IMG/VR virus record: IMGVR_UViG_3300031718_000014
Span: 1 to 56,329 of that record
DNA length: 56,329 nt
Source: a virus
Lineage: Duplodnaviria > Caudoviricetes
Strand: one strand, 5' to 3'
Shown here: positions 5,689 through 54,874 of the stretch, piece by piece
Position numbering within the stretch: position 1 is the first letter of the stretch
Layout of the letters: each line of letters opens with the position of its first letter
Position numbers and translations under genes: made by a program
The notes under the pieces: model-generated
Databases searched by the model: none
Told to the model about the DNA's origin: nothing
Seen by the model: the letters and a program-made list of their open reading frames with translations, nothing else

Positions 5689-5710
5689 GAGCAAGTATAC
5701 TCTCTTTAGT

Positions 5711-5934: not shown

Positions 5935-5959
5935 TATCTGTACTCCGGCAACACCTACA

Positions 5960-5990
5960 TTGACACTCCCCCTTACCCAGCCTTCATACT
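5960..5990 (+). promoter_or_regulatory. Putative sigma70-like promoter TTGACA-19-CATACT, 7 nt before GTG 5998
   Basis: Perfect -35 in an intergenic gap; long spacer. Confidence 0.4.
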
Positions 5991-5997
5991 CCCACTC

Positions 5998-6261
5998 GTG
6001 CAGCAGCAGAATCAATCTACTAGTTTCGAGTTACTCTCTATCGACCCTTTGTACGACTCTGAAGGTTGGCGCTACGTCGAAGTAGCCGTCAACGGGGTGC
6101 GTGCTCTCCCATTCGCGTTCCACAAGACCGTGGCTTCCCAGTTCCCAACCGAAGACAGTCTGATGGCGTACCTCTGTCGTCAGGCCAAGACCATGATCGA
6201 ACGCTATGGTGATGCACGCAATCCCAAAATTCCCGATGCAAGGGAAGGAAGAGTCAACTGA
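5998..6261 (+). CDS. Hypothetical protein
   Basis: ORF with typical codon usage; no SD. Confidence 0.65.
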   Translation: MQQQNQSTSFELLSIDPLYDSEGWRYVEVAVNGVRALPFAFHKTVASQFPTEDSLMAYLCRQAKTMIERYGDARNPKIPDAREGRVN

Positions 6262-28582: not shown

Positions 28583-28786
28583 ATGATCCTGACCAATGCA
28601 CTGTCGGTCAACAACGACAGGATTGACATAGACTCAAGCGCCATCGAGGTGGTGTACGAGAACAGCAGTGTGGTAGGTGGATGCGTGGTCGTACTGAAGA
28701 GTGGGGAGACTTACTTGGTGAGGGAAGACTTTGAGACCATAAGGAGATTAAGAGATGACGCTGCCACTCAGTCCACTGGGACGTAG
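28583..28786 (+). CDS. Small FlbD-like protein
   Basis: IDIDSSAIEVV...VVLKSGETYLVREDFETI pattern; start uncertain. Confidence 0.5.
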   Translation: MILTNALSVNNDRIDIDSSAIEVVYENSSVVGGCVVVLKSGETYLVREDFETIRRLRDDAATQSTGT

Positions 28787-29525
28787 ATACGGGTACAGAC
28801 CTAATCCACCGGATCACAGGGATTACGGACTAAGCAGGATAGAGCTGGTCAGAACACTTCCTACGGCGTTCTCGCTGAAAGACTCTCTAGGTCCGGTCAA
28901 GGACCAGGGCGACGAAGGGAGCTGCACTGCTCATGCTGGGACAGAGAATCTGGAGTTCTTGTACCGCAAGTACAAACACTCGGAACCCATATTTAGTCCC
29001 GCCTTCCTCTATTATCAGGAGAGAGTAATAGACGGAGATCCGAACTACGACGGCGGTTCTACTGGCCGGTCGTCTTGTCAGGCCATGCACAACTACGGGG
29101 TCTGCCTGGAAAGCCAAGACCCCTATGTGGCAGGACAGTATGCGATCCCACCCACAGCAGAACAGGTCCAAGATGCTTTGCAATACAAGTCAGGAGCGTA
29201 CCACTTCCTGACTACGGTCGGGGACATCAAAGCGTGCATTGCTAGTGGATACTGTGTGATGGTTGGGTTCACTGTCTATCAGAGTTTCGAGAGCATTGGC
29301 AGCGATGGCTTGATGCCTACTCCAGACAAGAATGCCGAACAGGTGCTAGGTGGCCATGAAACCTTGATTTACGGATACGATGACGCTACCGGACTACTCA
29401 GCATTCTCAATTCGTGGGGTCCGTCGTGGGGCGATGCCGGATCGTTCAAGATGAAATACAGTGACGCCGCTGATTCTGATATTGTGATGGACTTGGTGAT
29501 TCAACACTTAGGGCTGCCATGGTAA
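28755..29525 (+). CDS. Papain-like (C1A) cysteine peptidase
   Basis: VKDQGDEGSCTAHA, GGHETL and NSWG catalytic motifs. Confidence 0.9.
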   Translation: MTLPLSPLGRRYGYRPNPPDHRDYGLSRIELVRTLPTAFSLKDSLGPVKDQGDEGSCTAHAGTENLEFLYRKYKHSEPIFSPAFLYYQERVIDGDPNYDGGSTGRSSCQAMHNYGVCLESQDPYVAGQYAIPPTAEQVQDALQYKSGAYHFLTTVGDIKACIASGYCVMVGFTVYQSFESIGSDGLMPTPDKNAEQVLGGHETLIYGYDDATGLLSILNSWGPSWGDAGSFKMKYSDAADSDIVMDLVIQHLGLPW

Positions 29526-30288: not shown

Positions 30289-30762
30289 ATGTCACTCGAT
30301 AACATCTCGCTTGCCAGACTAGCTGAAGTCCACCCGGTCTTGTCGGCTCGTGTTCAGAGTTTGGCATCGCAGCTGGATTTCCCTATCAGGGTCACGCAGG
30401 GCATTCGGACAGTTGCTCAACAGAACGCTCTGTGGCAGGAAGGCCGGGATAACGATGGGAATGTGATTGGTAGGACCGTGACGAATGCTAAGGGTACTGA
30501 GAGCAATCACGTCATGGGAGTAGCGGTAGACGTAGTGCCAATGGATCTGCCGGACGATCACCCGGACTGGGACGAAAACTCAGCGTCATGGCAGAGGATA
30601 GTAGCATTGGCTTCGTCATGCGGATTGAGGGATGGCAAGAGCTTCCATGACGAGCCTCATCTGGAACTGATGGAAGTACCGGAAGTTCCTACTGAGGAAA
30701 TTCAGAGTATCTATCTTCAGGCCGGAGCGATGGCAGTGTGGCAGGAGTTGAATATCGCTTAG
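30289..30762 (+). CDS. Endolysin, M15 family peptidase
   Basis: GIRTVAQQNALW..GR, SNHVMGVAVD, DEPHLE. Confidence 0.88.
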   Translation: MSLDNISLARLAEVHPVLSARVQSLASQLDFPIRVTQGIRTVAQQNALWQEGRDNDGNVIGRTVTNAKGTESNHVMGVAVDVVPMDLPDDHPDWDENSASWQRIVALASSCGLRDGKSFHDEPHLELMEVPEVPTEEIQSIYLQAGAMAVWQELNIA

Positions 30763-34947: not shown

Positions 34948-36486
34948 CTATTTTTCAAGGGAAGCCCAATTATTTGCAAACGCCACATGGACTCCGATAG
35001 GAACGACCAGAGGGTAAGCCGTTTCCATGATCTCTTTGACCTCGTTCCCGGCATAGGTCTTCAGGAAGTCGTGGTCAGTCAGCTCGAACAGCAATTCGTC
35101 GTGGACTTCCAGTATGGGCTCCAACCGGAACTCACTGAAGTCCCGCCAGAACTCCAATAGCCACTGCCAGATACGAGCTTCCATGATCTTCTTCAGACAG
35201 TGAGCACTCGACTGCACTACGTGAGTAAAGCTCTGACGTTCGGCCTCCGTTTTCAGCGACTCAATGGCCGAATGGATGTTAGGCAGGTATCTGATCCGGC
35301 CAAACATGTCTTTCACGTAACCGTGACGGCGGCAGAACTCCATCTCCTTCTTCTGCCACGCACGGACACCGGAATAGATGTCCAGCCACGATTCTATCAG
35401 CCAGTCACACTCTTCGACGGTACGCGGGTCGCCACCCAGCTCCTGGTACTTGTCGAACTGAGCGGACAGACCCACCCCAGTGATGCCGTTGCAGATTCCA
35501 AACCCGGTACGTTTGGCTGGACCACGGTGCTTGTTCTTGTCTACCTTGCTGACTGGGATCTTGAATATCTCCGCTGCGGTCTCAGTATGAATATCCTTGC
35601 CCGAATGGAACATGTCGATTAACTTAGCGTCACCTGACAGGTGTGCCGTCACCCGGAGAAACCACTGATCCAAGTCGAACGTCCCTAGAACACAACCCTC
35701 CGGTGCAATGAACCCTCTGCGAATCTCCTTCCCGATCTCACTAGCCACAGGGATAGCCAACAGGTTAGGATCGTAAGCAGCGGTCTGACCGTTAGGTGAC
35801 GAAGTGAGAGAGAAGCGGGAATAGATGCGACTGTCATCGTGGACCCACGGTAGCATTCCGTCCACGTAAGTTCCTTTGAGTTTCTGCAATTCCCGATAGT
35901 CTAGGATCATGGGAACGATGGGGTGCTTCTTGCGATTGCCTTGCAGAGCTTTCTCGTCCGTGGACTCTCTCTTCCGGCTCTTTGTCATTCTGGTAGTGGT
36001 CAGGCCCAGCTTCTTGTAAAGTAGATCTGCCACCTGATCCCCGGAGTTGGGATTAATGTGCCCCATTTCAACGTGTTCCCCGACTAGGGAGTCGATCTCA
36101 CCACCCTTGATCTCCAGTAGCGCATCCAGGTACTCACCAAATTGATGGAAGTGTTGGGGATCGACCATGGTCCCATTGCGGTGCATCCGTTCGTAGTAGG
36201 GGATTACAGCGAGGTCTATCTCTTCCACTCTTCCCAGATCCAGACCACTATGTGCGCGACTAAGTTCAGGATAAATGCGACAAGTACAATCCGCATCGCG
36301 AGCAGCATAACGAACCGCCTTGTTTAACGGGATGTCGTCTAAAGTTGCGGACGGGATCGTGCCCCAAGCGGCTTCAATGTCCTTGCAACGGTCTGGGAAG
36401 TCCGCTCTAATCTTCTCCCAGATCCCTTTCGGATTTTCTGAGACAATGGCGTTTTGGATTCTTCTGGCCAGTGATTGCTTACCCAA
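34948..36486 (-). CDS. Family A DNA polymerase (ExoIII motif plus polymerase domain), divergent active site
   Basis: YAARDAD, INPNSGDQV, YRELQKLKGTY, GKEIRRGF, GYVKDMFGRIR, VHDELLFE; GAGGT then TTG. Confidence 0.9.
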   Translation of the reverse strand: MGKQSLARRIQNAIVSENPKGIWEKIRADFPDRCKDIEAAWGTIPSATLDDIPLNKAVRYAARDADCTCRIYPELSRAHSGLDLGRVEEIDLAVIPYYERMHRNGTMVDPQHFHQFGEYLDALLEIKGGEIDSLVGEHVEMGHINPNSGDQVADLLYKKLGLTTTRMTKSRKRESTDEKALQGNRKKHPIVPMILDYRELQKLKGTYVDGMLPWVHDDSRIYSRFSLTSSPNGQTAAYDPNLLAIPVASEIGKEIRRGFIAPEGCVLGTFDLDQWFLRVTAHLSGDAKLIDMFHSGKDIHTETAAEIFKIPVSKVDKNKHRGPAKRTGFGICNGITGVGLSAQFDKYQELGGDPRTVEECDWLIESWLDIYSGVRAWQKKEMEFCRRHGYVKDMFGRIRYLPNIHSAIESLKTEAERQSFTHVVQSSAHCLKKIMEARIWQWLLEFWRDFSEFRLEPILEVHDELLFELTDHDFLKTYAGNEVKEIMETAYPLVVPIGVHVAFANNWASLEK

Positions 36487-37481
36487 TTATGCACCTCAAT
36501 TAGCCACTGAATCTTCTTCTCTTTGTCCGCTTCCCCGATCACGTCTTCGTAATCGTCCTGAACCATCCCGCATAGCCTGCGACTGAGTGGCTTGAGTCCC
36601 TGTGGAAACAAACACAGGTGGTATGCTTTAACCATGGTGTCGGTGAACCGGAACCCCTCTATTCCCATGGAACGCAGAACGGCAATGTCGTGGAAAGCGT
36701 TGTGTAATACGACTGTGACTCCATTCCATTTTACATAGTCAGCAATAGCACTAAGCCATTCCTTGTCGCTTGCCAGAACCACGTATCCTTCTCCGATACC
36801 AAAAGTAAAACTCAATCCCCATGGTTTCTCTGCCGATCCCTCGGTGTCCATGTAGATTAGAGTAGGGTTCTTCCTGCCATGGAAGATCAAACTGAACAGT
36901 TCTCTAGAGTAATCCGTGAGTAACATGTACTGAGGATCAGGGCAAGTGTCGATCAAGTGGTCTGCACTACCAGACGCTCCCCGAACCATCCGGCAGAACG
37001 CTTGGAAGTCCGACCAGACTAGCGGAGTCATGCTAGCCGAATGGAGTCCGAACGCGGGATGGTACAGGGGCATCATGCGGAAACGGCCCTGTGACGAGAC
37101 GAACGGCAGACCGTGACTCCAGTCCATCTCCAGATCGCCCCCAAGGAAGTAACGCGCTGCGAAACGGCCTACTAGACCAATGTACTTGGGTCGGACGGTC
37201 TTCAACTCTTCGATCAGGAAGTGTTCATCCCGTCTGATCTCGTCCGGTGTGGGGTCTGGATTCCCCTTCAGGAAGTCTTTGCACAGATTAGTGCAATACA
37301 CATCGTCCCGATGGATGCCGCCTTCCAAGAGGTAACGGTCCAGTTCCTTGCCCGACTTCCCGCAGAAGGGGTAACCGCGACGGGACTCCTCTTCTCCCGC
37401 ACGTTCTCCCAAAATAAGTACATCACATGGCACGGGGCCACGTCCCCAGACGTACTTTAGTTGACTTGGTTTCGTTTCCAT
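36339..37481 (-). CDS. Uracil-DNA-glycosylase-like domain fused to 3'-5' exonuclease (ExoI/II); N-terminal half of the split polymerase
   Basis: GERAGEEE..GYPFCGKSG, YCTN, YHPA; MDTE, HNAFHD, DTMV. Confidence 0.85.
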   Translation of the reverse strand: METKPSQLKYVWGRGPVPCDVLILGERAGEEESRRGYPFCGKSGKELDRYLLEGGIHRDDVYCTNLCKDFLKGNPDPTPDEIRRDEHFLIEELKTVRPKYIGLVGRFAARYFLGGDLEMDWSHGLPFVSSQGRFRMMPLYHPAFGLHSASMTPLVWSDFQAFCRMVRGASGSADHLIDTCPDPQYMLLTDYSRELFSLIFHGRKNPTLIYMDTEGSAEKPWGLSFTFGIGEGYVVLASDKEWLSAIADYVKWNGVTVVLHNAFHDIAVLRSMGIEGFRFTDTMVKAYHLCLFPQGLKPLSRRLCGMVQDDYEDVIGEADKEKKIQWLIEVHNWVSNHWPEESKTPLSQKIRKGSGRRLERTSQTVARTLKPLGARSRPQL

Positions 37482-37945
37482 GTTCGTATCGCGTGACAGT
37501 TGGCACAGACAATCTCACACTTCTCCAGCTCTCTTTCGATGGTTCTCCAGCCAGTTCCCAAGAGTCTGCCGATATTGTCTCGTTTATCTCTTATGTGATC
37601 GAAGTGCATTACGTAGTGAGGAAAGTTACCGCCACAATCGGAGCAAGGGGTCACTTCCTTGAGAGCCTTGAGGTATTCCCTTATCTTTGCAGACCTTCTG
37701 TTGGCCTTCTCCCGCATGTTCTTGCGACCGCGAGGAGTTTTTCTCCACATCCTCTGGTAAGCTAGCTGATTCTCTTTTCTCTGTTCTGGAGAGAGTGTGC
37801 TTTTTGGTCTAAGTCCCATTAATCTAGCGTTAGCTCTATGCCCGGCAGAACGTCCGAAACATTGACTGGAACAGAATCTTCGGTTAGGTGCTCTACTAGT
37901 GAACTCACACCCACACTGTTCACACTTATAATTGAACGATCTCAT
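37457..37945 (-). CDS. HNH endonuclease
   Basis: CEQC..FCSSQC; CSDC...HFDH...CEIVCANCH. Confidence 0.88.
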   Translation of the reverse strand: MRSFNYKCEQCGCEFTSRAPNRRFCSSQCFGRSAGHRANARLMGLRPKSTLSPEQRKENQLAYQRMWRKTPRGRKNMREKANRRSAKIREYLKALKEVTPCSDCGGNFPHYVMHFDHIRDKRDNIGRLLGTGWRTIERELEKCEIVCANCHAIRTWKRNQVN

Positions 37946-38679
37946 TTGCCATCCATCAGCGCTTTGGTCACCTTGGCCGCAATCCCCTTGCCTATCCCTT
38001 CGATCTGTTCCCACTCATCCTGATTGGCCAGTACCATCTCCACCACGCTGCCAAAATGCGCTGCCACTGCCTTGCTCTTAGTCCACCCGATATTCGGCAG
38101 TTCCGCTGCGATCCGGCGAGTCAGGTTGGGCTTAATCAGGATCTCGCTATCAACCTGAGCTTCGTCAAATGCCAGATGGGAGCGGTGCTCTTCCCACTCT
38201 TTTCCGGTCCACCACGAATGAAGATCAGCAATGTAGCGGGCAGTTTCAAGGCGTGATAATGTTCGTCGGACTCGAACGCCACCTCGCGTCTCCATAGTAG
38301 TAAGCCAGTGGTCCAGATCGCGGTAGAGGAATCTCCTGCTGCCCAGAGACAAAGGCTCCATCCGCTTCCCTTTGCGATACATGAGTAGTCCTGTTTCGTA
38401 ATCACACGAGAACTGGCCTTCCAAGACAAGCCACACGCGACCATAGTTCTTAATGAGTCCGGGCAACTGACGACCAGCAAATCGTCCATCGCAAATAGAA
38501 TTGAGGCAGTCCCTGATCTTCTTGATCTCAATTCCCACCTCCATGGTGCTGCCGTTGGGACCGTTGCCCTTTATAGCCGCGTCACCGTAATCCAATCGGC
38601 AGAGAGTGAACGGGACTCTCCACTTCTCGAAAAACACAGAGAGATCACCTGAACCTATTCTGTTATCAAGGCGAATCAC
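37942..38679 (-). CDS. ERCC4/XPF-like nuclease with HhH motif (possible resolvase)
   Basis: LDNR, LDYGD, IEIKKIRDCLNSICDGRF, LVLEG, IEGIGKG. Confidence 0.85.
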   Translation of the reverse strand: MIRLDNRIGSGDLSVFFEKWRVPFTLCRLDYGDAAIKGNGPNGSTMEVGIEIKKIRDCLNSICDGRFAGRQLPGLIKNYGRVWLVLEGQFSCDYETGLLMYRKGKRMEPLSLGSRRFLYRDLDHWLTTMETRGGVRVRRTLSRLETARYIADLHSWWTGKEWEEHRSHLAFDEAQVDSEILIKPNLTRRIAAELPNIGWTKSKAVAAHFGSVVEMVLANQDEWEQIEGIGKGIAAKVTKALMDGK

Positions 38680-38843
38680 TTCGATACCTCGTGAGGACAA
38701 AACCCGAAGAAGCCTCTTGCTAAATTGCAGTACCTGAGCACGTAACTTACGAGCACGCGCTCTGCTCCAATTCCTGAAGTAAGCTTTGGACTTCTCTGGG
38801 TTTTCCCTTCGCCATTACGTCGTCTTTGTTCTAGTGTTGACAC
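38676..38843 (-). pseudogene. Decayed, internally deleted HNH endonuclease
   Basis: WRRENPEKSKAYFRNWSRARARKLRAQVL and CNLARGFFGFCPHE in different frames match the N- and C-termini of the HNH at 8188-8703. Confidence 0.7.
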
Positions 38844-39094: not shown

Positions 39095-39358
39095 CTACTC
39101 ACTCTCTGCTCCCACTACTTCACGCACTCTGGCTTTGTCGTAGATTTCTCCAACTCTCTCTACCAGACTGGCAATGAACTCCCGGTCCATAGTATCTATG
39201 TGTTCGTGTTCCACGTCGTAAACCACGCAGACTAGATTCGCACACTCAGGACACTTCTCTACGGCTTCCTTCTCCAGAACGTCGGCTTTGGTAGGGATAG
39301 TGGCCAGCAGTTCGGCAATATCGTTCAGTTCGTATTCGGTCAGTTGGAAGTCCCTCAT
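39095..39358 (-). CDS. Hypothetical protein
   Basis: ATGA-coupled. Confidence 0.6.
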   Translation of the reverse strand: MRDFQLTEYELNDIAELLATIPTKADVLEKEAVEKCPECANLVCVVYDVEHEHIDTMDREFIASLVERVGEIYDKARVREVVGAESE

Positions 39359-40137
39359 CGCCATTGATCCTCCGTCGTGTCAGGAAACACTAACTGGCCT
39401 ATAGTGGCGAAGTTATTCAATTCCCCCTGGTAGTCCTCTCCATCTAGTTCCGGGTTCATCCCGCATGAAATCACAGTGCTATGATAACGGTCCGGTATAG
39501 GTTCCTTGTCATCTACCCAGTGTTGCACCACTAAATCACATTCATAGACCATCTTGCCCCAACCCTCCAGCACCATCTCTCCGGTAGGCTCGCTCTTCTT
39601 AGTCTCTTTGATGTACTGGTATTCCCGCTTCATCCTGTGTGTGAACACGACATTAGCATTGCTGTTACGAGCTAGATCGACCCACATCTTCATCTCCCGG
39701 TTGACCGGACCGTATTCGCGTTCCAGCACTTTCTCAGTCCGTCCGAAGCTGGCTAGGCGAGCAATCTCGTACAGTTCCGCTGCTCCGTCTACTGCTACGG
39801 TGCGAGCCTCGCCAAGAGCTTGAATGTAGTCAGTCCGCATCTGTTGCAATTGAGCGTCTGCAGCTTCTGATACTTCCTTGGCGGAGTTCCCGTTCGACCG
39901 GATGCCTGTGAACGCTTTGCGGTAGCGTGCCACGTAGATTTCCTTTTCCTTCTGGAAGCCCTTAATGGCCCGGTGAATCCCGTCGTCAATGTCGATCACA
40001 GCAATGGGCGGCGGCCCGGTCAAGTACCAGTGGGTCTTGCCACACTTCTGCATGGCTTGGGTGCAAACGATTAGGCGGGCCGGAATGTCAATGCCAGCCC
40101 GGATAAAACCGCTCTCACTACGTTTCTGTGACGCCAC
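39355..40137 (-). CDS. AAA/RecA-like ATPase (Sak4/AAA_24-like)
   Basis: AMQKCGKT Walker A, VIDID, VAVDG Walker B, NVVFTH. Confidence 0.75.
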   Translation of the reverse strand: MASQKRSESGFIRAGIDIPARLIVCTQAMQKCGKTHWYLTGPPPIAVIDIDDGIHRAIKGFQKEKEIYVARYRKAFTGIRSNGNSAKEVSEAADAQLQQMRTDYIQALGEARTVAVDGAAELYEIARLASFGRTEKVLEREYGPVNREMKMWVDLARNSNANVVFTHRMKREYQYIKETKKSEPTGEMVLEGWGKMVYECDLVVQHWVDDKEPIPDRYHSTVISCGMNPELDGEDYQGELNNFATIGQLVFPDTTEDQWR

Positions 40138-40279
40138 GTCGTATCTCCCGTCTGGACATCCACCGTTGCCCACAGCCGCAATAACACAGGTGTTTTCCCC
40201 TGTGTCCGTGATTCAGACAGCATCTGTATTCTAGTGTGCCGCGATCTCTCACGGCCTTGCATTTACGTTTTGGTGCCAC
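40118..40279 (-). CDS. Small Cys/His protein
   Basis: C..C.L..GH.G.H motif, AAGGAG upstream. Confidence 0.5.
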   Translation of the reverse strand: MAPKRKCKAVRDRGTLEYRCCLNHGHRGKHLCYCGCGQRWMSRREIRRGVTET

Positions 40280-40871
40280 TACGTTTCTCCTTCTCCATCG
40301 CTCGGGCATTGGCAGTGATTAACCGCCAGTTGTCTTCTAGTTCCCTGTCAGTGAACTCCACATCGAACTGCTTTACCTGAGGTCCGCTGTCCGCGTAGTT
40401 CCCGTTCACGAAGAACACTCGCAGACTCACCCGGTTGAGTTTCATCATCCAGCAGTACGCTTTGACCTGGACAAACCACGACCAGAAGTCCGTCTCTATG
40501 CTACGGCGGCTGGACCTCCAAGTGGCTTTGGTCTCGTCTATCGCCATCCCGGTTAGCTCCAGTCCATCCGGTGTCCCCACTATCCCATCCAACTCAATCT
40601 CCCCGGTACGAACGTATTCCCCACCGAAGATAGGGGTAAGAGACTGGGCGAGTAAGTCTTCCCATGCGTACCCAACGCTCACGTAGTTCCCCATGCGCTT
40701 CTTCTCGTTAGGGGAAAGGTCCTCGTAAGGCTTCCTCTGACCACGATGTATCACTCGATTGTCCACCCAACGCAAAATCTCACTTATGTGAACTTTGTCA
40801 GTTGAACGATCCCCTCTTCGTCCAGAAAGAACAAGGGGGTCTAGTTCAATTAGTCGTTCGACTATTTTCAT
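40263..40871 (-). CDS. PD-(D/E)XK (Cas4-like) exonuclease
   Basis: HISE, GTPDGL, DETKAT, QVKAY. Confidence 0.82.
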   Translation of the reverse strand: MKIVERLIELDPLVLSGRRGDRSTDKVHISEILRWVDNRVIHRGQRKPYEDLSPNEKKRMGNYVSVGYAWEDLLAQSLTPIFGGEYVRTGEIELDGIVGTPDGLELTGMAIDETKATWRSSRRSIETDFWSWFVQVKAYCWMMKLNRVSLRVFFVNGNYADSGPQVKQFDVEFTDRELEDNWRLITANARAMEKEKRSGTKT

Positions 40872-41388
40872 GCGGACAAACTCCACCGTTATATTCCATT
40901 CCACAGTTACAGTTGTAACAACGAGGCTCGAAACCATCAGGGAATCCGTTGTTTTTCAACCATTGGTATATGTCCTTCTTTATCTGTCTGCGGTGTTCAG
41001 CTCCATCATTGTTGATGTGATGAATCGTTAAGAAACCAAACTCAGTTTCTCCACAACAAGCACAGACCCCACCATAGTGTTCAATTACTAGTTTGCGGAG
41101 TCTCTTTCTATAGTTTCTAGAAAGACGATTGACAATCTCGCGGTGTGTTACCTGATACTCCTTACGATGCACCTGCTGCCACGCTAAGTAATACTCCTTG
41201 TGTTTCGCTCTCCATTGCCGCGCTAATTCGGCATGTCTTCCAGGATGTTCCTTTCTCCACTTTCTTGAGCGCTCCCTTTCTTTTTCTCTCGCTGCCTCAC
41301 TTACATGCAGCTTGTCTGTAGAGCGGTCCACACGACTGCGAGACATGACTAACGGGTCTAAATCGATGGACCGCTCTACGAGACGCAT
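40846..41388 (-). CDS. HNH endonuclease fused to a 31-aa duplicate of the exonuclease N-terminus
   Basis: CACCGE...LTIHHI...CYNCN..CPH; N-terminus MRLVERSIDLDPLVMSRSRVDRSTDKLHVSE. Confidence 0.88.
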   Translation of the reverse strand: MRLVERSIDLDPLVMSRSRVDRSTDKLHVSEAAREKERERSRKWRKEHPGRHAELARQWRAKHKEYYLAWQQVHRKEYQVTHREIVNRLSRNYRKRLRKLVIEHYGGVCACCGETEFGFLTIHHINNDGAEHRRQIKKDIYQWLKNNGFPDGFEPRCYNCNCGMEYNGGVCPHENSRTTN

Positions 41389-41393
41389 TGCGA

Positions 41394-42257
41394 TCACTCT
41401 GCCGCTGTAATGAACTCGCCGTCGATCACCCACGGCGCATCAGCCTGTTCCAGAAAATCGTTCTGAACCACGTACTTGATTAGTTCCTTCCTGTGCGTGG
41501 CCTTGGGAGCGGCTTGGAACGCAGCCATTCCCAGCCGCTTGACTTCGATGGGACCATCTGCCTTGGCCAGTGCAGCGACCACGGCTTCAATGGCTTCAGT
41601 ATTCAACTCGTCCGTATCTCCGTTGCTAGAAGGGGATGCAGCGGTCGCAGTAGTCGTTCTCGCACCAGCCGAACTCGCCGCACGAGACGCACCAACGGAT
41701 GACGCTTTTCCCTTTCCCCTTGCTTCCCATGGGAGTGAATGGATCTTGGTGAACACTCCAATGGGCTTGTTCCCTCCCTCCAGTCCTTCCCTCTTCTTCT
41801 TCGGTGCAATCGCGTTCATGTGACCCCGGAGTCCCACCGCAGTCTGAAACCCTTCATCCCGCAGCTTGTCTTCTGGGAACCCTTGATCGACCAGGGCTCC
41901 GAGAAATAGGTAGGCATTGCAGCTATTATTCAGCCCAGTCGCGCTGCTTCCCTCTGCCGGGTAGAAGCACGCTCCGTCGTCAGACGGAACGATCTTACTC
42001 AGATCGCCAGCGGAGTAGTATTGCTCGTGTTCAGTCCCATCGTCGTCCTTCAATTTAACCAGAAGGAACGCGCTGGGTTCCTGACTGCCGTTATAGTCCC
42101 ACGTGGTCGCGGTCATCTCCATGATGGTGGTGTCCACGTTGTCCGGTGCGCCGCCGCCTGAGACTGCGTCTGACGGTGCAACACTGATCGGTTTGCGGTC
42201 CTTACTGCCTGAGCCCGACTTCCCTTTCACAACGCTTGGCTTGCCAAGTGGCGACAT
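41394..42257 (-). CDS. Putative ssDNA-binding/replication protein
   Basis: Position between helicase and exonuclease; beta-rich domain plus Ala/Ser linker. Confidence 0.5.
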   Translation of the reverse strand: MSPLGKPSVVKGKSGSGSKDRKPISVAPSDAVSGGGAPDNVDTTIMEMTATTWDYNGSQEPSAFLLVKLKDDDGTEHEQYYSAGDLSKIVPSDDGACFYPAEGSSATGLNNSCNAYLFLGALVDQGFPEDKLRDEGFQTAVGLRGHMNAIAPKKKREGLEGGNKPIGVFTKIHSLPWEARGKGKASSVGASRAASSAGARTTTATAASPSSNGDTDELNTEAIEAVVAALAKADGPIEVKRLGMAAFQAAPKATHRKELIKYVVQNDFLEQADAPWVIDGEFITAAE

Positions 42258-42287: not shown

Positions 42288-44750
42288 TTACTTCTCTAAG
42301 GGTTTGGGTATTACTTTACAAATCTCGACTGCTTCAGCAAACCACTTCGGAGCGAACTTCTTGAACTTAGGCCAGAACCACTCAAAGTGGTCGTCAACCA
42401 CTAAGACCTCCGACCAGTCGTCCTCGCTCCTAGTACTTCTCCCTGCCATCTGAACGATCTCCTGCATCGCTTGGTACATAGGATAGTCTCTGTCCCGGTC
42501 GCTGCGAGCCTTGGTGACTAAGTCTCTAGTGTCTGGGAACGGGACTTTGCACAATATCTGCCAGCGACACTCGGAGTCTGGAAAATCAAACCCGGTACTA
42601 ACGCTCGGGCTCACGAGTATGGCCGGGGCTTTGGTCCCTTTAAATCTTCGTATGGTGTCTTGGGAGGACTCTCGTGTGTGGACGAGCATATGCTCTGCGA
42701 ACTCGCTGTTTCTAGCGATCCACTGCGCTCTTTGATAGGAAACAGCGTGGATAATTCCCTTCCCTTGTAGTCTGGGCCTGACGATAGCGTCGATCTTCGA
42801 TATCCAGGCTCGTAAGTGCCCCGGTGTGGCTCGCTTGTCCATGCGTACACTAGGGACAAAATAGACAGGACGCCTACCCACTGGAAAGCTGGAAGGGTAC
42901 TCCCGAAAGTCCACATCGCCATGACCAATACCCAGAAGTTCAAGAGTCTTCGGACGAATCGTGGCGGAGGTAAGAACGACTCTCTTAATCCCACAGAACA
43001 GCCTCCTTTCGGCATAGTCGGCAGGCCACACCGGATCGAAGCGGGCTACTAGGCTCCCGCTGGGTCCTCGCCGCGTCACTTGAAAGACCCAGTCTCCCTG
43101 AGCGGACGATAACTGCGCCAGTTTCCGCTCAAGTTTCTTGAGATGCTTCGCTTGATGCACGGCCCACCGACTGTCGCCGTTATTAGCCAAACCGCCCTTT
43201 ACAGCCGCCTCAAGGTCTTCTCGCTGCGACCGGGCACGGTCCAGCCAAACTCTTGCCGTCAACTTCCATGGTTCAAAGTTAATTAGTTCGGGGAAACGGT
43301 CCTCGTCTACTAACTCCAAGTCGCTAGGGAATAGTTCTACTGCCAGATAGTTACTAAGTTGGTCCAGCGCATCGTGAGCCTCGTCTAGTACCAGCATCCC
43401 GAACGCACCGAGACCGCCGCCGTGTTCCATTTGGTGCATCCAATAGGAGTAGTTGGTAGAGACTAGAGTAACTTGTCTGGCCAACTTCACACGGTCGAAG
43501 TAGACGCAGCCGCTTTCCTTCAACTCGCAGCGAACTCCACCGTGGCACGGTCCTTCGTCGCACTTGATCTCGTCCGCAAAGTCTGTTTGAACATCACGCA
43601 GAGTGATAGTCCGACCGTTCGCTTTGTACAGGCAGGGGTAATTGTTCTGACCACGAACGTCCAATAGACCGCTATCCCCAAAGTCCTTCTCCAACTGATT
43701 CTGCAACCCTCTGGTACTGGTCAGGAATGCGGTACGTTCCCCAGACAATTGCGCCGCTGCCAGATAAGCCAGTGATTTGCCGGAGTTATGCACCACCATT
43801 CCGTTTGCGACAAAGTTTTCGTGCGGTTCACAAGCTATTAGGTCGTATACCTCTTCACTTATTTGCGCTCTCTTGACCCACGATACACGAACCTCTTTAG
43901 GTATCCCTTGATGGAAACTGGTGTGATCTCCATGTAATTTCTGGTGAGCCTCGTGCGTAAGAACCTGCAAGTTATCCAAGTCGTTGTGCGAGCTATCTTC
44001 ATCTCGATGGTGGACGGCAAAAATCTCTGGATCAAGGAATGTTAGTCCTTTTGTATTTCCCCTTCGGCAAACTTCTATGAACTCGTCTATGAATAAGCCG
44101 TTAAGGTTTGCTTCGACAACGATGCAGTGATAAGGAACGCGGTACAACCTGCCTTCCACATGGTTTCCTCTGTGTCTATAAGAACCGGAGTTTCCAGCGT
44201 AGGGATGGTTTTTTAATCCTTGAATTTGTCGATACTGTGCTTTGTGGTGCTTCTTTCCGTTTGATCGCGGTCTTGGTGTATCGCAGATCACTTCATCTGT
44301 GGAGACCAAATCCTCAATGCAAACAAAGCCTCGTGACGTGAGAACCTGATGATCGGGAGTTGCTCGCAATGACTTACCATCACGCAGGGTTAAAAGGACA
44401 GTTTCGCGCCGTCCTGAATAACCTACAGATGAAAATTCGTGAAGTCTTATCTCTTTGCCGTCGAAGCTTCGCGTAAAGGGAAGAATGCCTCTAGCTCTGC
44501 GATTGATATGGTTCTGTTGACAATAAAATTCCTGTTCAATTGTTCGCTGAATACTATTCTTCGCCCGATTCACTTGGACGATAGTGTCCCCAACCACACA
44601 GCCGGTTGGGAGTGCCAGCACCACAAACCGCTTGGTACTCTCAACCGCCCGTAGCGCAGCGTCCTCTTGCCCTGGTCGCCATGACTCAAAGCGTTCTGGC
44701 AGTCCCAACCCACTGGGCTCTGGGAGTATTCCGATGGAACTAACTGGCAA
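42288..44750 (-). CDS. DinG/Rad3-like SF2 helicase containing an intein
   Basis: RPGQ, PTG[intein]SGKS, DEAH, LTSAT, GFDFP, KVPFP, QMAGRSTRSEDD; AGGAG then TTG. Confidence 0.9.
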   Translation of the reverse strand: MPVSSIGILPEPSGLGLPERFESWRPGQEDAALRAVESTKRFVVLALPTGCVVGDTIVQVNRAKNSIQRTIEQEFYCQQNHINRRARGILPFTRSFDGKEIRLHEFSSVGYSGRRETVLLTLRDGKSLRATPDHQVLTSRGFVCIEDLVSTDEVICDTPRPRSNGKKHHKAQYRQIQGLKNHPYAGNSGSYRHRGNHVEGRLYRVPYHCIVVEANLNGLFIDEFIEVCRRGNTKGLTFLDPEIFAVHHRDEDSSHNDLDNLQVLTHEAHQKLHGDHTSFHQGIPKEVRVSWVKRAQISEEVYDLIACEPHENFVANGMVVHNSGKSLAYLAAAQLSGERTAFLTSTRGLQNQLEKDFGDSGLLDVRGQNNYPCLYKANGRTITLRDVQTDFADEIKCDEGPCHGGVRCELKESGCVYFDRVKLARQVTLVSTNYSYWMHQMEHGGGLGAFGMLVLDEAHDALDQLSNYLAVELFPSDLELVDEDRFPELINFEPWKLTARVWLDRARSQREDLEAAVKGGLANNGDSRWAVHQAKHLKKLERKLAQLSSAQGDWVFQVTRRGPSGSLVARFDPVWPADYAERRLFCGIKRVVLTSATIRPKTLELLGIGHGDVDFREYPSSFPVGRRPVYFVPSVRMDKRATPGHLRAWISKIDAIVRPRLQGKGIIHAVSYQRAQWIARNSEFAEHMLVHTRESSQDTIRRFKGTKAPAILVSPSVSTGFDFPDSECRWQILCKVPFPDTRDLVTKARSDRDRDYPMYQAMQEIVQMAGRSTRSEDDWSEVLVVDDHFEWFWPKFKKFAPKWFAEAVEICKVIPKPLEK
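43785..44600 (-). mobile_element. Intein (272 aa) with HNH endonuclease domain
   Basis: N-terminal CVVGDT, block B ATPDH, VYDL...NFVANGMVVHN followed by Ser; VHHRDEDSSHNDLDNL. Confidence 0.93.
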
Positions 44751-44904
44751 CTTGTGTTTGCTCCTGTGGCTTTGGTGTTCCACTGCCTTTGCATCGGTGG
44801 TGCGTTCGCTTGTTCCTGTGATCCACAATGGTTCCGTCCGACCACAGACGTACCAGTCTGCCGCACACGTCGCAGGGTATTCGGATCTCACTTTGAGTTT
44901 TCAT
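44740..44904 (-). CDS. 54-aa zinc-finger-like protein (CDVC...H...CKGSG)
   Basis: TAATG-coupled, GGAG SD; not in the ORF track. Confidence 0.6.
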   Translation of the reverse strand: MKTQSEIRIPCDVCGRLVRLWSDGTIVDHRNKRTHHRCKGSGTPKPQEQTQVAS

Positions 44905-50633: not shown

Positions 50634-50888
50634 TCATATCGTTACTCTGGACATCCAGTGATGTTCTTGCAATGGGTACGGTGGGTTCTCCTTAATCTTA
50701 TTGTTCGCGAAGACGATCTCTCCATCCAGTAGGGTCTGATCTACGATCACAGTGGCATTATTGAACTTGGAATTAGCCTGAACGTGCATCTTGCTGGCAG
50801 TCTGTCCGTTCAATCTCATCTCGTCCGGCTCCGAGTACCCGTAGCAAATCTTCTGGTAAGCCTCTTCGATTGCGATTAGGTCGATCAT
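50634..50888 (-). CDS. Hypothetical protein
   Basis: ATGA-coupled. Confidence 0.6.
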   Translation of the reverse strand: MIDLIAIEEAYQKICYGYSEPDEMRLNGQTASKMHVQANSKFNNATVIVDQTLLDGEIVFANNKIKENPPYPLQEHHWMSRVTI

Positions 50889-52018
50889 TGCGGCAACCGA
50901 TATGGCGTGAAAAAGGTTCCCTTGTACTTCCCTTGGTACTTACTTCTAATCTCCTCTTCGTAGTTCCACGCGAATATGCAGGTCCACTCGGGTTGTTCTC
51001 GTAACCAGTCGTCCGGGCTCACGATCCTCTGTCCGGTCCCCGGTATGAATTTGCCGATCTTGGCCGGAGTGGAGTCTGCGATCATGGGGATGAGATCGTC
51101 ACCTATATTGCAGAAGTTCAGCATCATGGTTGCCTTGGCAGCCGCTCCGAATCCCCACACTTTCTTCTCTCTTACGAAGTTGAATAGTGCATTAGTTTGC
51201 TGAACGATCCTTTCTCTCATCAGGTCGAAGTCGAACTTCTCGTCTGCCACCGCCACGCCTTCGTACCATGGGACTTTTAGGAAGAACAATCTTAAGCTCC
51301 CTCCGTGTGCCGGTATTCTCTCCAGCTTGGTAACACGCATTCCATTGCGGAGAAAAAGATTCAACACTGCATTTATCGAGAAGTAGTAGTTGTGTTCGTG
51401 GTAGATGGTATCAAACGCGGATTGTTCCACCAGACATCCCAAGTACGGGACTTCCACCACTACTACTCCATCCGGTTTCAATATCTCCCCAATTCCAGCT
51501 ACAAAGTCGTTTAAGTCCTGCACGTGAGCCAGCACGTTATGAGCATGAATCACATCGGCCTTGGGCAGCGTCTTAGCCAGTTTCAGCGTGAAGTAATCCT
51601 GCACCGTTGGTATTCCCTTGAGTGCCGCTACATTGGCTGGTCCTCTGGCAGGATCTACTCCCAATATAGGTACTCCCAATTCTCTGTATCTAGTGAGCAA
51701 GTAACCGTCGTTGCTGCCAATCTCTATAGCTAATTCCACGTTCCTTTCGTCTGGGTTAAATACCATCTGATCTACTATCTTTCTGGCGCTATCAATAGTA
51801 GGTTCGTTCACGCTGGAATAATAGACATATTCCTCGAACATCAGGGCGGGATCGACCTGTTCTTTCAACTGTCCCAGCTTGCAACCAGGGCAGAACATCA
51901 GATCCAGCGGGTACTTCTTATAGCTCTCGCTGGGATAGTCGAGCAGATGGTTCGCCAGCGGCATCTCCCCTAGTGATAGTACGCGTTCAGTCGGGCTCCC
52001 GCAGCTTCGGCAGTTCAC
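50885..52018 (-). CDS. NDP-sugar C-methyltransferase-like class I SAM methyltransferase
   Basis: CRSC..LGEMPLAN..CPGC zinc domain, EIGSNDG, FDTIYHEH, HGGSLR, GFGAAAKA. Confidence 0.88.
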   Translation of the reverse strand: MNCRSCGSPTERVLSLGEMPLANHLLDYPSESYKKYPLDLMFCPGCKLGQLKEQVDPALMFEEYVYYSSVNEPTIDSARKIVDQMVFNPDERNVELAIEIGSNDGYLLTRYRELGVPILGVDPARGPANVAALKGIPTVQDYFTLKLAKTLPKADVIHAHNVLAHVQDLNDFVAGIGEILKPDGVVVVEVPYLGCLVEQSAFDTIYHEHNYYFSINAVLNLFLRNGMRVTKLERIPAHGGSLRLFFLKVPWYEGVAVADEKFDFDLMRERIVQQTNALFNFVREKKVWGFGAAAKATMMLNFCNIGDDLIPMIADSTPAKIGKFIPGTGQRIVSPDDWLREQPEWTCIFAWNYEEEIRSKYQGKYKGTFFTPYRLPQ

Positions 52019-54048
52019 AGTTTCCTCGCCACTACGACCGTAGAGTAGTCGGCCCACACGTCGCTAATTTCCGGCATACATCCGACATCCCGCACAAATT
52101 GTGATAACTCGTCCGGCGTGAACCCCGGCCACACGTGCTCTTTGTTATACCCTGTGAACAGTTTAGGGTGCGGTGTCGCTACGATCAACTTGCCGCCTCT
52201 CTTCAGTATCCTCGCCCATTCTTTGAGCACTGCTTCGGTATCGTCCAAGTCCTCGATGCAGTGGCTGGAATAGACCCACTCGTAAATTCCATCGGCCACA
52301 GGTATTTTCCTAGCGTCTCCCCGCATGGTAACTTCAGGCCATGGATCGTCATCTAGGGCTGCACATCTGTCGGTCAGCGGGTCTCTGCCGCATCCAATGT
52401 CGATTCCCTGAGTCTCTTGGGTAATATAAGCGAGCACTCTCTCCCTGATCTTACTAGTCTCCTGGTACAACGCTTTCGCCCCCAGCACTTCCTCAATCGC
52501 TTTGACCGCGTCTTCCTCCCTCAGTCTGTCCATACACACGTCGCCCTGCTCTCTCACACATCTGCCGGGGCTCCCCTTGGGTCTCTCCGCATAGACAGTG
52601 TGGCATCCCAGACATCCGCATCCCATGAGTGGCGCTGTCAACGCTTTCACGAACGGGAACGGCAACAGTATATTCTTATGGTTCATTGCTCCGAATATCC
52701 CTACAGTCGGGATCAAACTAGCCTGTGCGAAGTTCATCAGGGCGCTGTCCACACCGAAAAATAATCCCGCTCCTTCCACCAACGAAGCCGCTTGGCGCAG
52801 GGTAGTCTTCCCCTGCAAATTGAGATCGCACGGTATTCCCGGTGTGAACTGAGTCCCCACTAGCACCGTTTTCCATCCCTTATGGTTTAGCCAATTAGAC
52901 ATCTGTACCATGAACGGTATTCTAGGATTCCGTCCCATCCACGGTTGGCCAATGTGCGGGTGAATTACCGCGTAAGGTTCGTTCCAAACGGCTTCCTTTG
53001 CCCATTTTCTGGCTTCCTCGCCGGGATACAGATGTAATCTCCAATCGTCCGTCGAGACTCCGCTTACCTCCTGGTAGGCTTCAATGATGTGCATGTCTGG
53101 TCTGCACTCGTAGGCACAATCGAGATTGATGTACTTGTCGCTTGGAGCGAAATGGTTTTCGGACTCGTTGTTAAAAACAGAAGTCACATCGGGGTTTCCC
53201 GCCAGAACATCCGGGCAACTGGTGTAAACAGTGATCTCTGCTTCGGCGTTCTGCTTTTTGATCTCTCGTAGTATGGGAGTCAGGAACAATACGTCTCCAT
53301 TGGCCCCGGTTCTTCGGATACCCCACTGCACCCGGAAGTTTCTGTTCTTGATGTAACTGCTCCACCGTTTCTTATAAGTCTCTTCATTGATCCGGTGGAA
53401 CCCATCCACATCTACTCCTTGTTGTATGACCGTTCCCATGGTCCCGCATCGCTTGTGCCGGACACTGGCCGGTACTCTTCCAATGTGATACCCCAATTTC
53501 CTGACTCTCAGGCTCAGGTCGTTGTCCTCAAAGTAGGCGAACCTGTACTCGGGATCGAACAGTCCTCCCTCAATCCTTCTGAGCAGGCTAGTCCTCCCCA
53601 TCATCACCGCCCCTTCCACGTACTCAAACGAAGCCCCTTGGAATCCATGCCCGTTCGGGTCTATGCTTCCGCAAACATCAGCAGCCTGTATTCCCACCAA
53701 GGCCATCTTAGGATCGTTCACAAATTGGTCCCGCATCATCTCCAGCCAGTCGGGACACAGGATCTCCACATCGTTGTTCAGTGTGACGAAGTATGGTGCG
53801 TGCGAGAATTCCAGTGCTTTATCCAGACATCTTCCCAGACCGGAGTTCCGTTCCATGACGATGACGCCGATCCTTCCAGCTTCCGCTTCTGTTCTCAGAT
53901 ACTCTGGGGTTTCATCTGTCGAATGGTCATCCACTACGATTACTTCTGCTCTACTAATCCCTTTGCTGATCTTCAAACTCTCCAGGCACTTCTTGGTCAG
54001 GTGCAGGTGATTAAACACAGGAATGGCGATAGTATAAAGTGGCCGCAT
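52015..54048 (-). CDS. Tri-domain GT2 + GT9-like glycosyltransferase + SAM methyltransferase
   Basis: IPVFN, VVDDHSTD, LNND, FEDND; GANGDV, FGVDSALMN; DIGCG, SSHCIED. Confidence 0.85.
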   Translation of the reverse strand: MRPLYTIAIPVFNHLHLTKKCLESLKISKGISRAEVIVVDDHSTDETPEYLRTEAEAGRIGVIVMERNSGLGRCLDKALEFSHAPYFVTLNNDVEILCPDWLEMMRDQFVNDPKMALVGIQAADVCGSIDPNGHGFQGASFEYVEGAVMMGRTSLLRRIEGGLFDPEYRFAYFEDNDLSLRVRKLGYHIGRVPASVRHKRCGTMGTVIQQGVDVDGFHRINEETYKKRWSSYIKNRNFRVQWGIRRTGANGDVLFLTPILREIKKQNAEAEITVYTSCPDVLAGNPDVTSVFNNESENHFAPSDKYINLDCAYECRPDMHIIEAYQEVSGVSTDDWRLHLYPGEEARKWAKEAVWNEPYAVIHPHIGQPWMGRNPRIPFMVQMSNWLNHKGWKTVLVGTQFTPGIPCDLNLQGKTTLRQAASLVEGAGLFFGVDSALMNFAQASLIPTVGIFGAMNHKNILLPFPFVKALTAPLMGCGCLGCHTVYAERPKGSPGRCVREQGDVCMDRLREEDAVKAIEEVLGAKALYQETSKIRERVLAYITQETQGIDIGCGRDPLTDRCAALDDDPWPEVTMRGDARKIPVADGIYEWVYSSHCIEDLDDTEAVLKEWARILKRGGKLIVATPHPKLFTGYNKEHVWPGFTPDELSQFVRDVGCMPEISDVWADYSTVVVARKL

Positions 54049-54701
54049 TAGAACCTTCCGTACAATGCAGGCTGGACTTGCGAGAACGATAGGCCAAAAT
54101 GCGAGTAGTATAAGTTCATACAAAGGGCTTGCTTCTTATTATTCTTGTTTGCCCAATCTGCGACGATAGGGTCTTGCTTGTCAGCCGGTCCTTTGAACTC
54201 CCCATAGGGCACTGCTCCACGGTAGCTCATGTAGGGGCATCCCCACCAGTAGGGCATCTCTTCCACTTCCAGCTTGGAGTTTCGTAGTCTCTCGTGGTGT
54301 CTCACTGAGTCTTCCACCGTGAGCATGGGCCTGCCGACCATCATCACGTACTTTCTATCTACGTTGTATAAGTGCCACAGATTGACCGCGTGTTCTACCC
54401 AATTCGCTCCCAGCGGCATTTCGTCGTCGTCTACCATCAGGTAGGGTTCGGTCTCAGCGTTTTCATCGGCATACTGTCTGCTGGCGAAGTGGAAGTTCTC
54501 CGCTGGAAAGCACTTCTCCCAGCTCAGCTCCAGATAGTCTCTGTAGGTGAAAGGTTCCGCCAATTTAGTCCCGCCCAAAGCTATGGGTCTGAGCCTGACC
54601 AGGGGATCGCTTTTCCATCGGGCTACGCAGGCCATTGCTATTCCCAATCTGATCCGGTCCTTGGGACCGATGCGAATGAAAAGGTCAATCTTCTCTGTCA
54701 C
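54048..54701 (-). CDS. Putative GT-A-fold glycosyltransferase
   Basis: YLMVDDDEMP DxD motif; coupled to the GT2 gene. Confidence 0.55.
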   Translation of the reverse strand: MTEKIDLFIRIGPKDRIRLGIAMACVARWKSDPLVRLRPIALGGTKLAEPFTYRDYLELSWEKCFPAENFHFASRQYADENAETEPYLMVDDDEMPLGANWVEHAVNLWHLYNVDRKYVMMVGRPMLTVEDSVRHHERLRNSKLEVEEMPYWWGCPYMSYRGAVPYGEFKGPADKQDPIVADWANKNNKKQALCMNLYYSHFGLSFSQVQPALYGRF

Positions 54702-54874
54702 TTGATCTTCCTTCTCTTGGCAATCCGTCCTGTATACTTCCTTCCGGGCCACCGGGACTCTAAAGCCTTTTCAATGTTCCTTCTGGCAGCATCCTTCTTC
54801 TCTTCACTCTTGCTCTTGCCGCCCTTCTTTCCCAATTTGCTCAGGTGTTCGCTCAGAATGTTTTTGACTTTCAT
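54698..54874 (-). CDS. Small basic protein (LGKKGGKSKS..AARRN)
   Basis: KGG-like motif; GTGA overlap. Confidence 0.6.
   Translation of the reverse strand: MKVKNILSEHLSKLGKKGGKSKSEEKKDAARRNIEKALESRWPGRKYTGRIAKRRKIK

Follow-up and report, generated by a model that had tools for sequence, protein, structure and literature searches.

A phage UDG-PolA-type DNA polymerase encoded by two overlapping reading frames, with an aromatic residue at the steric-gate position

The described enzymes and the pocket of the window polymerase

[quoted passage not shown] The enzyme considered here is encoded by IMG/VR record IMGVR_UViG_3300031718_000014, the complete genome of a soil phage (56,329 bp, with an exact 127-bp repeat at its termini; this whole stretch is referred to as the window). 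It shares the order of family 4 UDG, 3'-5' exonuclease and PolA with the described fusions, but it departs from them in two respects: the substitutions at the steric gate, the 'fork' arginine and R682 of the polymerase pocket, and a split into two genes that lies inside the exonuclease, in a different lineage. Family scans of the open reading frames (ORFs) recognised no other DNA polymerase in the genome.

In Pol I-type enzymes, R668 (Klenow numbering is used throughout, Taq numbering where stated) is a hydrogen-bond donor to two partners, the minor-groove side of the primer-terminal base and the O4' of the incoming sugar; N845 and Q849 are further readers of the minor groove, and in KlenTaq the residue at Y766 fills the template position at abasic sites. 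The steric gate is a Tyr or Phe in B-family, Y-family and reverse-transcriptase enzymes. For family A, Glu710 and Tyr766 have been called universally conserved: the part of E710 is to place the sugar of the incoming deoxynucleotide (dNTP) and to block ribonucleotides (rNTPs), Y766 forms a stack with the template and a hydrogen bond with E710, and Klenow carrying E710A, E710Q or Y766A becomes a mutator whose closing on correct dNTPs is poor (PMC3715850). Mutagenesis of the corresponding Taq residue, E615, found Asp alone to be tolerated (PMC4215692, citing Patel and Loeb 2000), while Taq R587 borders the exit cavity of C5 substituents and contacts them (PMC10487964). A full-text literature search, which did not extend to the motif logos in Figure 3 and the supplements of PMC10201439, found no report of a natural non-Glu gate in PolA, nor of gate, fork and R682 substitutions in the literature on UDG-PolA.

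The window 'PolA' is not a single gene, but two overlapping ORFs on the minus strand (36339-37481 and 34948-36486). The second of these, ORF 2 (34948..36486, 512 aa), carries the Exo III motif and the polymerase domain, which matches PF00476 at 1.5e-82 (278 bits vs a gathering cut-off of 34.3) and the KlenTaq chains at E 6e-69 (phmmer). Its AlphaFold2 model has a pLDDT of 94.8 and finds its nearest solved folds in KlenTaq and Bst (Foldseek, TM 0.7-0.8). The large fragments of bacterial Pol I (KlenTaq, Klenow, Bst) are thus the closest solved relatives, at approximately 34% identity over the polymerase domain.

Residues were called from the phmmer alignment to the KlenTaq chains and from a 121-row alignment, and the motif coordinates, all on the minus strand, were confirmed by translating that strand. 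The TGR motif reads NGQ (35785..35793), which places a Gln at R668 (Taq R573). It is followed by PNLLAIPVA (35743..35769), in which PNLLA (35755-35769) stands where Taq has PNLQN, Q677 and N678 being replaced by Leu and Ala, and in which the codon at 35743-35745 specifies Ala in place of R682 (Taq R587). Motif A, DYSQIELR in Taq, reads DLDQWFLR (35653..35676): the catalytic Asp is kept, whereas I709 (Taq I614) has become Trp and E710 (Taq E615), the gate itself, has become Phe. Motif B, RGPAKRTGFGICNG (35485..35526), keeps R754, K758 and F762, but its core KRTGFGICNG replaces KTINFGVLYG and places an Asn at Y766 (Taq Y671). In motif 6, RQSFTHVVQ (35212..35238), THVVQ stands where the reference has NMPVQ, so that R841 and Q849 are kept and N845 (Taq N750) is a Thr. 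Motif C, LEVHDE (35095..35112), keeps H881, D882 and E883, and has Glu for Q879.

The named changes are, in full, R668Q, Q677L, N678A, I709W, E710F, Y766N and N845T, to which the Ala at R682 is added, and the retained residues are D705, R754, K758, F762, R841, Q849, H881, D882 and E883. Apart from R682 and Q879, these readings agree with the original prediction, made from the letters alone, which had named the Phe at the gate, the Asn in motif B, the Gln of NGQ, PNLLA, the Thr at N845, and the intact catalytic Asp and VHDE. Its residues hold up in both alignments, although its treatment of the locus as one PolA gene does not. By fold, domain score and catalytic residues (the carboxylates D705, D882 and E883, together with R754 and K758 of motif B) the enzyme is a family A polymerase, from which three conserved-residue marks of the family are nevertheless missing: the Glu gate (position A2), the Arg of TGR and the Tyr at position B4 of motif B (Y766). 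Compared with the Pol I large fragment it has the same Asp/Asp/Glu triad, R754, K758, F762, Q849, H881 and three Klenow exonuclease motifs, but lacks the 5'-nuclease domain, carries a UDG domain and is made as two polypeptides.

The enzyme differs from each of the described groups. The N4 polymerase (gp39) is 22% identical (E 2e-12) and keeps the Glu gate, and the UDG of N4-like enzymes is without catalytic residues, whereas E26, N65 and H141 are conserved in the window UDG. Retention of these catalytic residues is a feature described for the SPO1-like and SP15-like enzymes (PMC10201439, PMC13697223). Exon 2 of the SPO1 polymerase is approximately 30% identical, yet it keeps DYSQLELR, the Tyr at B4 and Asn845. 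The SP15-like polymerases have chains of 1142-1306 aa, with two large insertions and an extension of the C-terminal domain (PMC13697223); the window enzyme, in contrast, has 380 + 512 aa (892 aa in two chains) and no large insertions, and ORF 1 matches the 1142-aa chain 9qhs_A in its UDG part only (E 4e-07). DpoZ of the 2-aminoadenine phages is another phage PolA clade that is substituted at B4, but it has a Phe there and keeps the steric gate (PMC10201439), whereas the window has an Asn. Moreover, DpoZ goes with a PurZ/DatZ/MazZ gene set, whereas no PurZ-like (adenylosuccinate-synthetase-like) gene was seen among the scanned ORFs of the window, PurZ not having been sought in six frames.

Conservation and history of the substitutions

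A word-indexed search of 5.8 billion proteins yielded relatives of ORF 2, of which 12 (47-95% identical in the alignment) share the rewired residues: in every one, R668 is replaced by Gln, Y766 by Asn and N845 by Thr or Ser, and the residues at 709/710 are an aromatic pair. Shared by sequences as distant as 47% identity, the substitutions are neither chance nor private noise. In a table of 261 rows (the window protein and 260 collected homologues; 22 key columns), the R668 position is Gln in 13/13 rows of this clade and Arg in 248/248 rows outside it. Position 710 has a Phe in 5 clade rows and a His in the other 8, compared with Glu in 243 and Asp in 5 of the outside rows, and position 709 is Trp in 5 and Phe in 8, compared with an aliphatic residue in nearly all outside rows. 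The two positions go together (Trp-Phe in 5 rows including the window, Phe-His in 8), and among the 261 rows those with R668Q are exactly the 13 with Phe or His at 710 and Trp or Phe at 709. R682 is an Arg in 217/248 outside rows vs 1/13 clade rows, while D705 and K758 are each found in 261/261. When every position of ORF 2 was scanned for residues that are at least 75% conserved in the 248 outside rows and yet lost in the clade, only four passed, i.e. R668, R682, I709 and E710.

The clade is also under purifying selection. Between the window and metagenome contig L004, 359 codons could be compared at 89% nucleotide identity, with 349/359 residues the same (97%), dN 0.020, dS 0.588 and a ratio of nonsynonymous to synonymous change (dN/dS) of 0.034; none of the ten replacements lies inside a motif. 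A maximum-likelihood tree was made of 61 chosen rows (the 13 group members and 44 wide-clade rows, with 4 bacterial Pol I for an outgroup) from an alignment in which the 20 trait columns were left out, and the 13 rows still formed one clade (SH-aLRT 96). Its sister, P0014, carries R, V and E (SH-aLRT 98). The stem branch of the clade is short (0.13), so that no general acceleration took place, and the substitutions are conserved across path lengths of approximately 1.1 changes per site. The claim that the changes are concerted and shared by a clade under purifying selection, as opposed to decay, is therefore well supported (13/13 against 0/248, with the dN/dS and tree given above), and it passes the check that the original prediction had named for itself.

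Three subclades, of which one is Trp-Phe and the other two are Phe-His, meet within the clade in an unresolved trichotomy, an arrangement from which Phe-His is probably the older state and Trp-Phe derived in the lineage of the window. In addition, the Trp-Phe subclade has private motif changes: the T of TGR is an N, the Ile before Asn333 a Cys and the Pro of motif 6 a Val, together with L669T and Q879E, the last being confined to this subclade. On the alignments and the tree, the changes are nested: variation at Y766, N845 and Q677/N678 is already present in the wide phage UDG-PolA clade, and it is the inner clade that then lost R668, R682, I709 and E710. The changes at Y766, N845 and Q677/N678, which the original prediction had counted among the concerted ones, are present in the window, but on this reading they are older than the gate and fork changes and are widespread, not specific to this enzyme. 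In the wide clade (153 rows with PNLxA), position B4 is T in 56 rows, Y in 48, N in 34, M in 14 and F in 1. Y766 is thus Thr, Asn or Met in 104/153 of these UDG-PolA-type rows, most of which keep Glu710, and N845 is Ser or Ala in 99/261 rows. Such a broad divergence from the Pol I consensus may in itself not have been described before.

The rewired group is real but rare. A profile search of 1.84 billion cluster representatives returned three group members (809, 752 and 701 bits), after which the scores drop to 546. Searches with both ORFs (tblastn) against 50,697 phage records gave no cultured relative above 37% identity, and no clade-related locus was found in the GTDB genomes. IMG/VR holds 2 related loci (G001 and G002), both with the canonical gate, and the JGI metagenomes 8 loci, among which L004 and L005 belong to the Trp-Phe subclade and L006 matches at 48% identity.

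The UDG and exonuclease domains and the split into two reading frames

ORF 1 (36339..37481, minus strand, 380 aa) carries the UDG and the N-terminal two thirds of the 3'-5' exonuclease (PF03167 and PF01612). Its UDG domain (37032..37442; PF03167 at 6.3e-22, residues 14-150) is of family 4 and matches the Thermus thermophilus UDG 1ui0 at E 3e-21 (phmmer), with the Glu, Asn and His aligned in GE(26), TN(65) and H(141)PA. In a 22-row alignment (the window and 21 of 33 stand-alone ORF 1 homologues of 303-533 aa) E26, N65 and H141 are invariant, so that the UDG domain of the original prediction is confirmed down to its catalytic residues. At 37284-37295 (minus strand), the domain has an Asp where the T. 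thermophilus enzyme has the Cys of 'KC', and nothing in ORF 1 corresponds to the N-terminal part of that enzyme; this Cys and the N-terminal part presumably supply the ligands of the iron-sulfur cluster of family 4 UDGs, which, from the alignment, may be absent here.

The exonuclease is divided between the two products. PF01612 matches residues 209-320 of ORF 1 (2.2e-06; profile positions 23-143 of 173), and the remainder of the profile (positions 142-170) matches residues 42-77 of ORF 2. The part on ORF 1 (36522..36857, minus strand) contains Exo I (MDTEG, 36837-36851) and Exo II (HNAFHD, 36687-36704), of which D212, T213, E214 and D265 are invariant in the 22 rows, whereas Exo III (YAARD, 36295..36309, minus strand) is on the polymerase ORF. 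All three motifs, with D212, E214 and D265 in the first subunit and Exo III in the second, are conserved. The order PF03167, PF01612, PF00476 of the UDG-PolA fusions is thus found along two ORFs, in different frames, instead of along a single polypeptide.

Three-frame translation shows that the ORFs overlap by 148 nt (36339..36486, minus strand), with ORF 2 in frame -1 relative to ORF 1. In the window, ORF 2 starts at a TTG with GAGGTG 5 nt upstream, and its N-terminus (x-K-Q-S-L-A-R-R-I-Q) is conserved among relatives, which start with ATG (P0002, P0003, P0005 and L002) or GTG (L005). The out-of-frame tail of ORF 1 is rich in K/R and varies from 0 to approximately 45 aa across the 22 rows. 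The same -1 arrangement, with overlaps of approximately 140-175 nt across these loci, occurs in L005 (62% identity) and in L002 (46%), the sister that has the canonical gate, so the split predates the rewiring. In L003 (6778-11482), the UDG-exoN and exoC-pol genes even lie approximately 2 kb apart with other ORFs between them, which means that the two halves can be unlinked; one of the intervening ORFs looks to be of the HNH type.

A -1 overlap shared by the window, L005 and L002 could also point to programmed ribosomal frameshifting that joins the ORFs into one UDG-exo-pol chain, a possibility that concerns the architecture only and for which the window overlap does contain one slippery heptamer (X XXY YYZ). 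This is very improbable, and the candidate was rejected: the overlaps of L005 and L002 contain no heptamer, a TAA directly precedes the conserved ORF 2 N-terminus in the window, relatives have ATG, GTG or TTG at the same position with a Shine-Dalgarno sequence ahead of it, and neither the variable length of the ORF 1 tail nor the 2 kb between the L003 genes would be expected of a frameshifted fusion.

From the reading frames and their conservation it is concluded that this is a true two-subunit enzyme. A predicted complex of both chains reached an ipSAE of 0.86, compared with 0.00 for the best of 3 controls (the mark used is reached by 58/80 solved complexes and by 2/110 mismatched pairs), with model runs agreeing in at least 96% of contacts and a partner pLDDT of at least 87. 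The model supports assembly of ORF 1 with ORF 2, within the limit that such a pass may only mirror likeness, the two chains being halves of a domain that has been solved as one chain.

The split probably arose when a fused ancestor underwent a frameshift mutation and the second ORF then came to be initiated independently. In the wide clade 60 rows are split-like, 87 fused and 6 intermediate (of 153), and the fused 810-aa P0020 nests among split forms (P0013-P0026) in the tree, which suggests repeated splitting, re-fusion, or differences in gene calling. The split exo/pol PolA of T7-like cyanophages (S-SBP1-like) likewise consists of two genes whose products are predicted to reassemble, but there the cut sets the exo domain apart from the pol domain (PMC10201439), whereas in the window it falls inside the exonuclease, between Exo II and Exo III; in addition, the PolA lineages are unrelated, the window ORFs overlap in the -1 frame, and the first piece carries a UDG. 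The window thereby provides a second, independent case of a two-gene PolA.

Functional readings and genome context

With moderate confidence, the enzyme is regarded as a working, proofreading replicative polymerase in which an aromatic steric gate would maintain dNTP selection while the checking of the primer terminus would be relaxed. A small clade has rebuilt the pocket around the incoming sugar and the primer terminus, exchanging the Arg668/Glu710 charged pair, Ile709 and Arg682 for a Gln and a planar aromatic pair, the latter probably Phe-His at first and then Trp-Phe in the window lineage. It did so around a retained core of metal ligands (D705, D882 and E883), triphosphate binders (R754 and K758), the sugar-stacking Phe762 and the three exonuclease motifs. 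The ring at 710 (both residues found there, Phe and His, are planar rings) would sit under C2' of the incoming sugar, and ribonucleotides would still be excluded, as they are with the Tyr or Phe gates elsewhere. With the Arg668 'fork' and Asn845 gone, the minor-groove check of the primer terminus would be weaker, for which the reconstituted exonuclease would make up by proofreading, ORF 1 (UDG, Exo I and Exo II) and ORF 2 (Exo III and polymerase) assembling into the enzyme. R668 and E710 may act as a compensating charge pair, and the finding that Taq E615 tolerates Asp alone fits a need for accompanying changes (PMC4215692).

Several points weigh against this. The coupling of the residues is one historical event plus a second step, and not 13 independent events. 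The retained dNTP selectivity is something we infer from side-chain size and from other polymerase families, and the relaxed checking is likewise deduced from the lost residues. A single change of E710 or Y766 makes Klenow a mutator, so that normal function here would need compensation (PMC3715850), and the loss of two primer-terminus arginines that border the C5-substituent cavity would also suit a non-standard substrate (PMC10487964). Furthermore, the genome carries an unexplained cluster of glycosyltransferase and C-methyltransferase genes, and approximately half of the early-region ORFs are without a recognisable family, among which modification enzymes could hide.

A clade that is held under purifying selection with Phe or His at the gate and Gln for Arg668 implies that the Pol I pocket has a second viable solution, one beyond the reach of single-mutant studies. 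It offers a natural test of the role of the Glu-Tyr-Arg network, of an aromatic gate in this fold, and of how far a proofreading replicase needs minor-groove checking. To polymerase engineers it would present a pre-compensated scaffold that is altered at the very positions mutated for unnatural nucleotides.

The original prediction had instead read the changes as a sign of altered substrate specificity, i.e. a modified sugar or base, rNTP use or self-priming, citing a missing primase and the sugar enzymes. The genome context was scanned with Pfam (E up to 0.5) on 33 further ORFs, with PHROGs on 31 ORFs and by six-frame searches of the window with PF00303, PF09250 and PF13155, approximately 20 small ORFs, mostly in the structural half, being outside the ORF scans; two ORFs of no recognised family, submitted to the ESM Atlas, returned only unnamed viral clusters. 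Altered substrate, rNTP use and self-priming are not supported by what was found. It is rather doubtful that the lineage dropped the Glu gate, the Arg668 fork and Arg682 in order to copy or build DNA that ordinary Pol I-type pockets reject, its genome being chemically unusual through a base-modified (bulky or minor-groove) or a sugar-modified or ribo nucleotide. Such a substrate, whether altered in its sugar, substituted in the minor groove or carrying a bulky adduct on its base, would possibly be made with the glycosyl- and methyltransferase genes of the phage. It would fit that the four clade-specific losses line the pocket of the sugar and the primer terminus, that Taq R587 lies at the edge of the cavity that C5 substituents use (PMC10487964), and that a 702-aa fusion of GT2, GT9 and methyltransferase (52015-54123, minus strand) lies next to an NDP-hexose-type C-methyltransferase (Methyltransf_13/14; 50885-52057, minus strand). 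Hypermodified genomes have been reported to be refractory to commercial polymerases (PMC13697223), whereas this genome was assembled whole from ordinary metagenome reads, with its 127-bp terminal overlap. The sugar enzymes are indeed there, but the cluster is not shared with G001 and G002, in which the C-methyltransferase finds no match. A thymidylate-synthase-type gene was found neither in the ORF scans nor in six frames (PF00303), and the scanned ORFs contain no dUTPase, PurZ-like, queuosine-type, kinase or other nucleotide-metabolism family. SPO1, which replicates hydroxymethyl-uracil DNA with a UDG-PolA, keeps a canonical pocket (motif A, Y766 and N845), and together with the lack of a thymidylate synthase this speaks against a modified base. 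Easier entry of rNTPs is not the expected effect of a Phe or His either, both being bulkier than Glu and opening no room for a 2'-substituent. The engineered Taq variants (E615G, and I614E/E615G in SFM4-3) that are changed at the same two motif A positions had residue 615 made small to admit 2'-substituents (PMC4215692), whereas in the window clade it is large and aromatic and the equivalents of R573 and R587 have changed as well. That Taq variants engineered at 614/615 for 2'-modified nucleotides rank first among the PDB matches is a coincidence of ranking and not evidence. If the enzyme did use a non-standard substrate, this would mean a DNA chemistry not yet described in the phage group, and a polymerase ready for use as a scaffold for unnatural nucleic acids. 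As for self-priming in place of a missing primase, both lost arginines normally hold the primer terminus, and no primase family was found in the ORF scans, nor Toprim_2 or Prim-Pol in the six-frame searches, which falls short of proving absence given that several replication-module ORFs of no recognised family could be a primase. R668 and E710 are both retained in the polymerases of G001 (60% complete; it shares the DinG-type helicase, 46% identical) and G002 (95% complete), and these records, too, match neither primase family, so that the primase context, although correctly noticed, is not tied to the rewiring. To our knowledge, no family A DNA polymerase starts de novo, and self-priming is a very remote prospect.

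The enzyme could also be a lesion-tolerant replicase, its own UDG creating abasic template sites opposite which it inserts and past which it extends, by virtue of the removal of the Arg668/Asn845 checks, Arg682 and Tyr766 and of an aromatic pair that would stack on the unpaired nascent nucleotide. The invariant catalytic residues of the UDG are consistent with this, as are the loss of R668 and N845, readers of the primer-terminal pair, and the replacement of Y766 in the wide clade of UDG enzymes, where 56 of 153 rows have T, 34 N and 14 M. SP15-like UDG-PolAs, moreover, remove dU ahead of the fork and use dA to bypass the abasic site that results (PMC13697223). However, outside the clade R668 is kept in 248/248 rows and E710 in 243/248, which indicates that coupling to a UDG does not need the changes of the inner clade, the SPO1 polymerase keeps all canonical residues, and neither an X-family polymerase nor a ligase was seen in the scanned window ORFs, all of which makes lesion tolerance unlikely. 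That the protein would be a decaying or non-catalytic relic, with a host polymerase replicating the phage, might be supposed from the interrupted gene and from the loss of residues called universally conserved (PMC3715850). This explanation was rejected and has next to no probability, considering the dN/dS, the retention of all catalytic residues, the clade-wide conservation of the substitutions themselves over approximately 1.1 changes per site, and a split that is old and shared, with its own start for each half and with halves that are unlinked in L003. The working, proofreading replicase with an aromatic gate is therefore the preferred reading.

In the window, structural genes occupy the plus strand to approximately 31 kb and early and replication genes the minus strand beyond; no tRNA genes were found in the 56,329 bp. 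The sugar cluster (50885-54752, minus strand) also holds a 234-aa ORF of no recognised family, and its target may be the virion, the host surface or DNA. Free-standing HNH endonuclease genes number three (37457-38014, 40846-41433 and 5275-6015, minus strand), and the UDG-exo ORF has one of these directly upstream. The replication/recombination module is rounded out by an ERCC4/XPF-type nuclease, which has a helix-hairpin-helix tail (37942-38700, minus strand), and by an AAA_24 ATPase (39355-40173, minus strand), of the family of an N4 gene annotated as Sak4-like; in L002 and L008 the ERCC4/XPF-type nuclease is likewise upstream of the polymerase. The DinG/Rad3-type helicase (42288-44891, minus strand; Helicase_C_2, phrog_2488) is interrupted at approximately residues 160-370 by an intein with an HNH endonuclease, which is missing from the G001 helicase, where residues 48-97 and 370-866 match contiguously. 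At the end of the structural block, a papain-family cysteine peptidase (28755-29525, plus strand) and a VanY/M15-type peptidase (30289-30762, plus strand) lie close together and probably form the lysis module.

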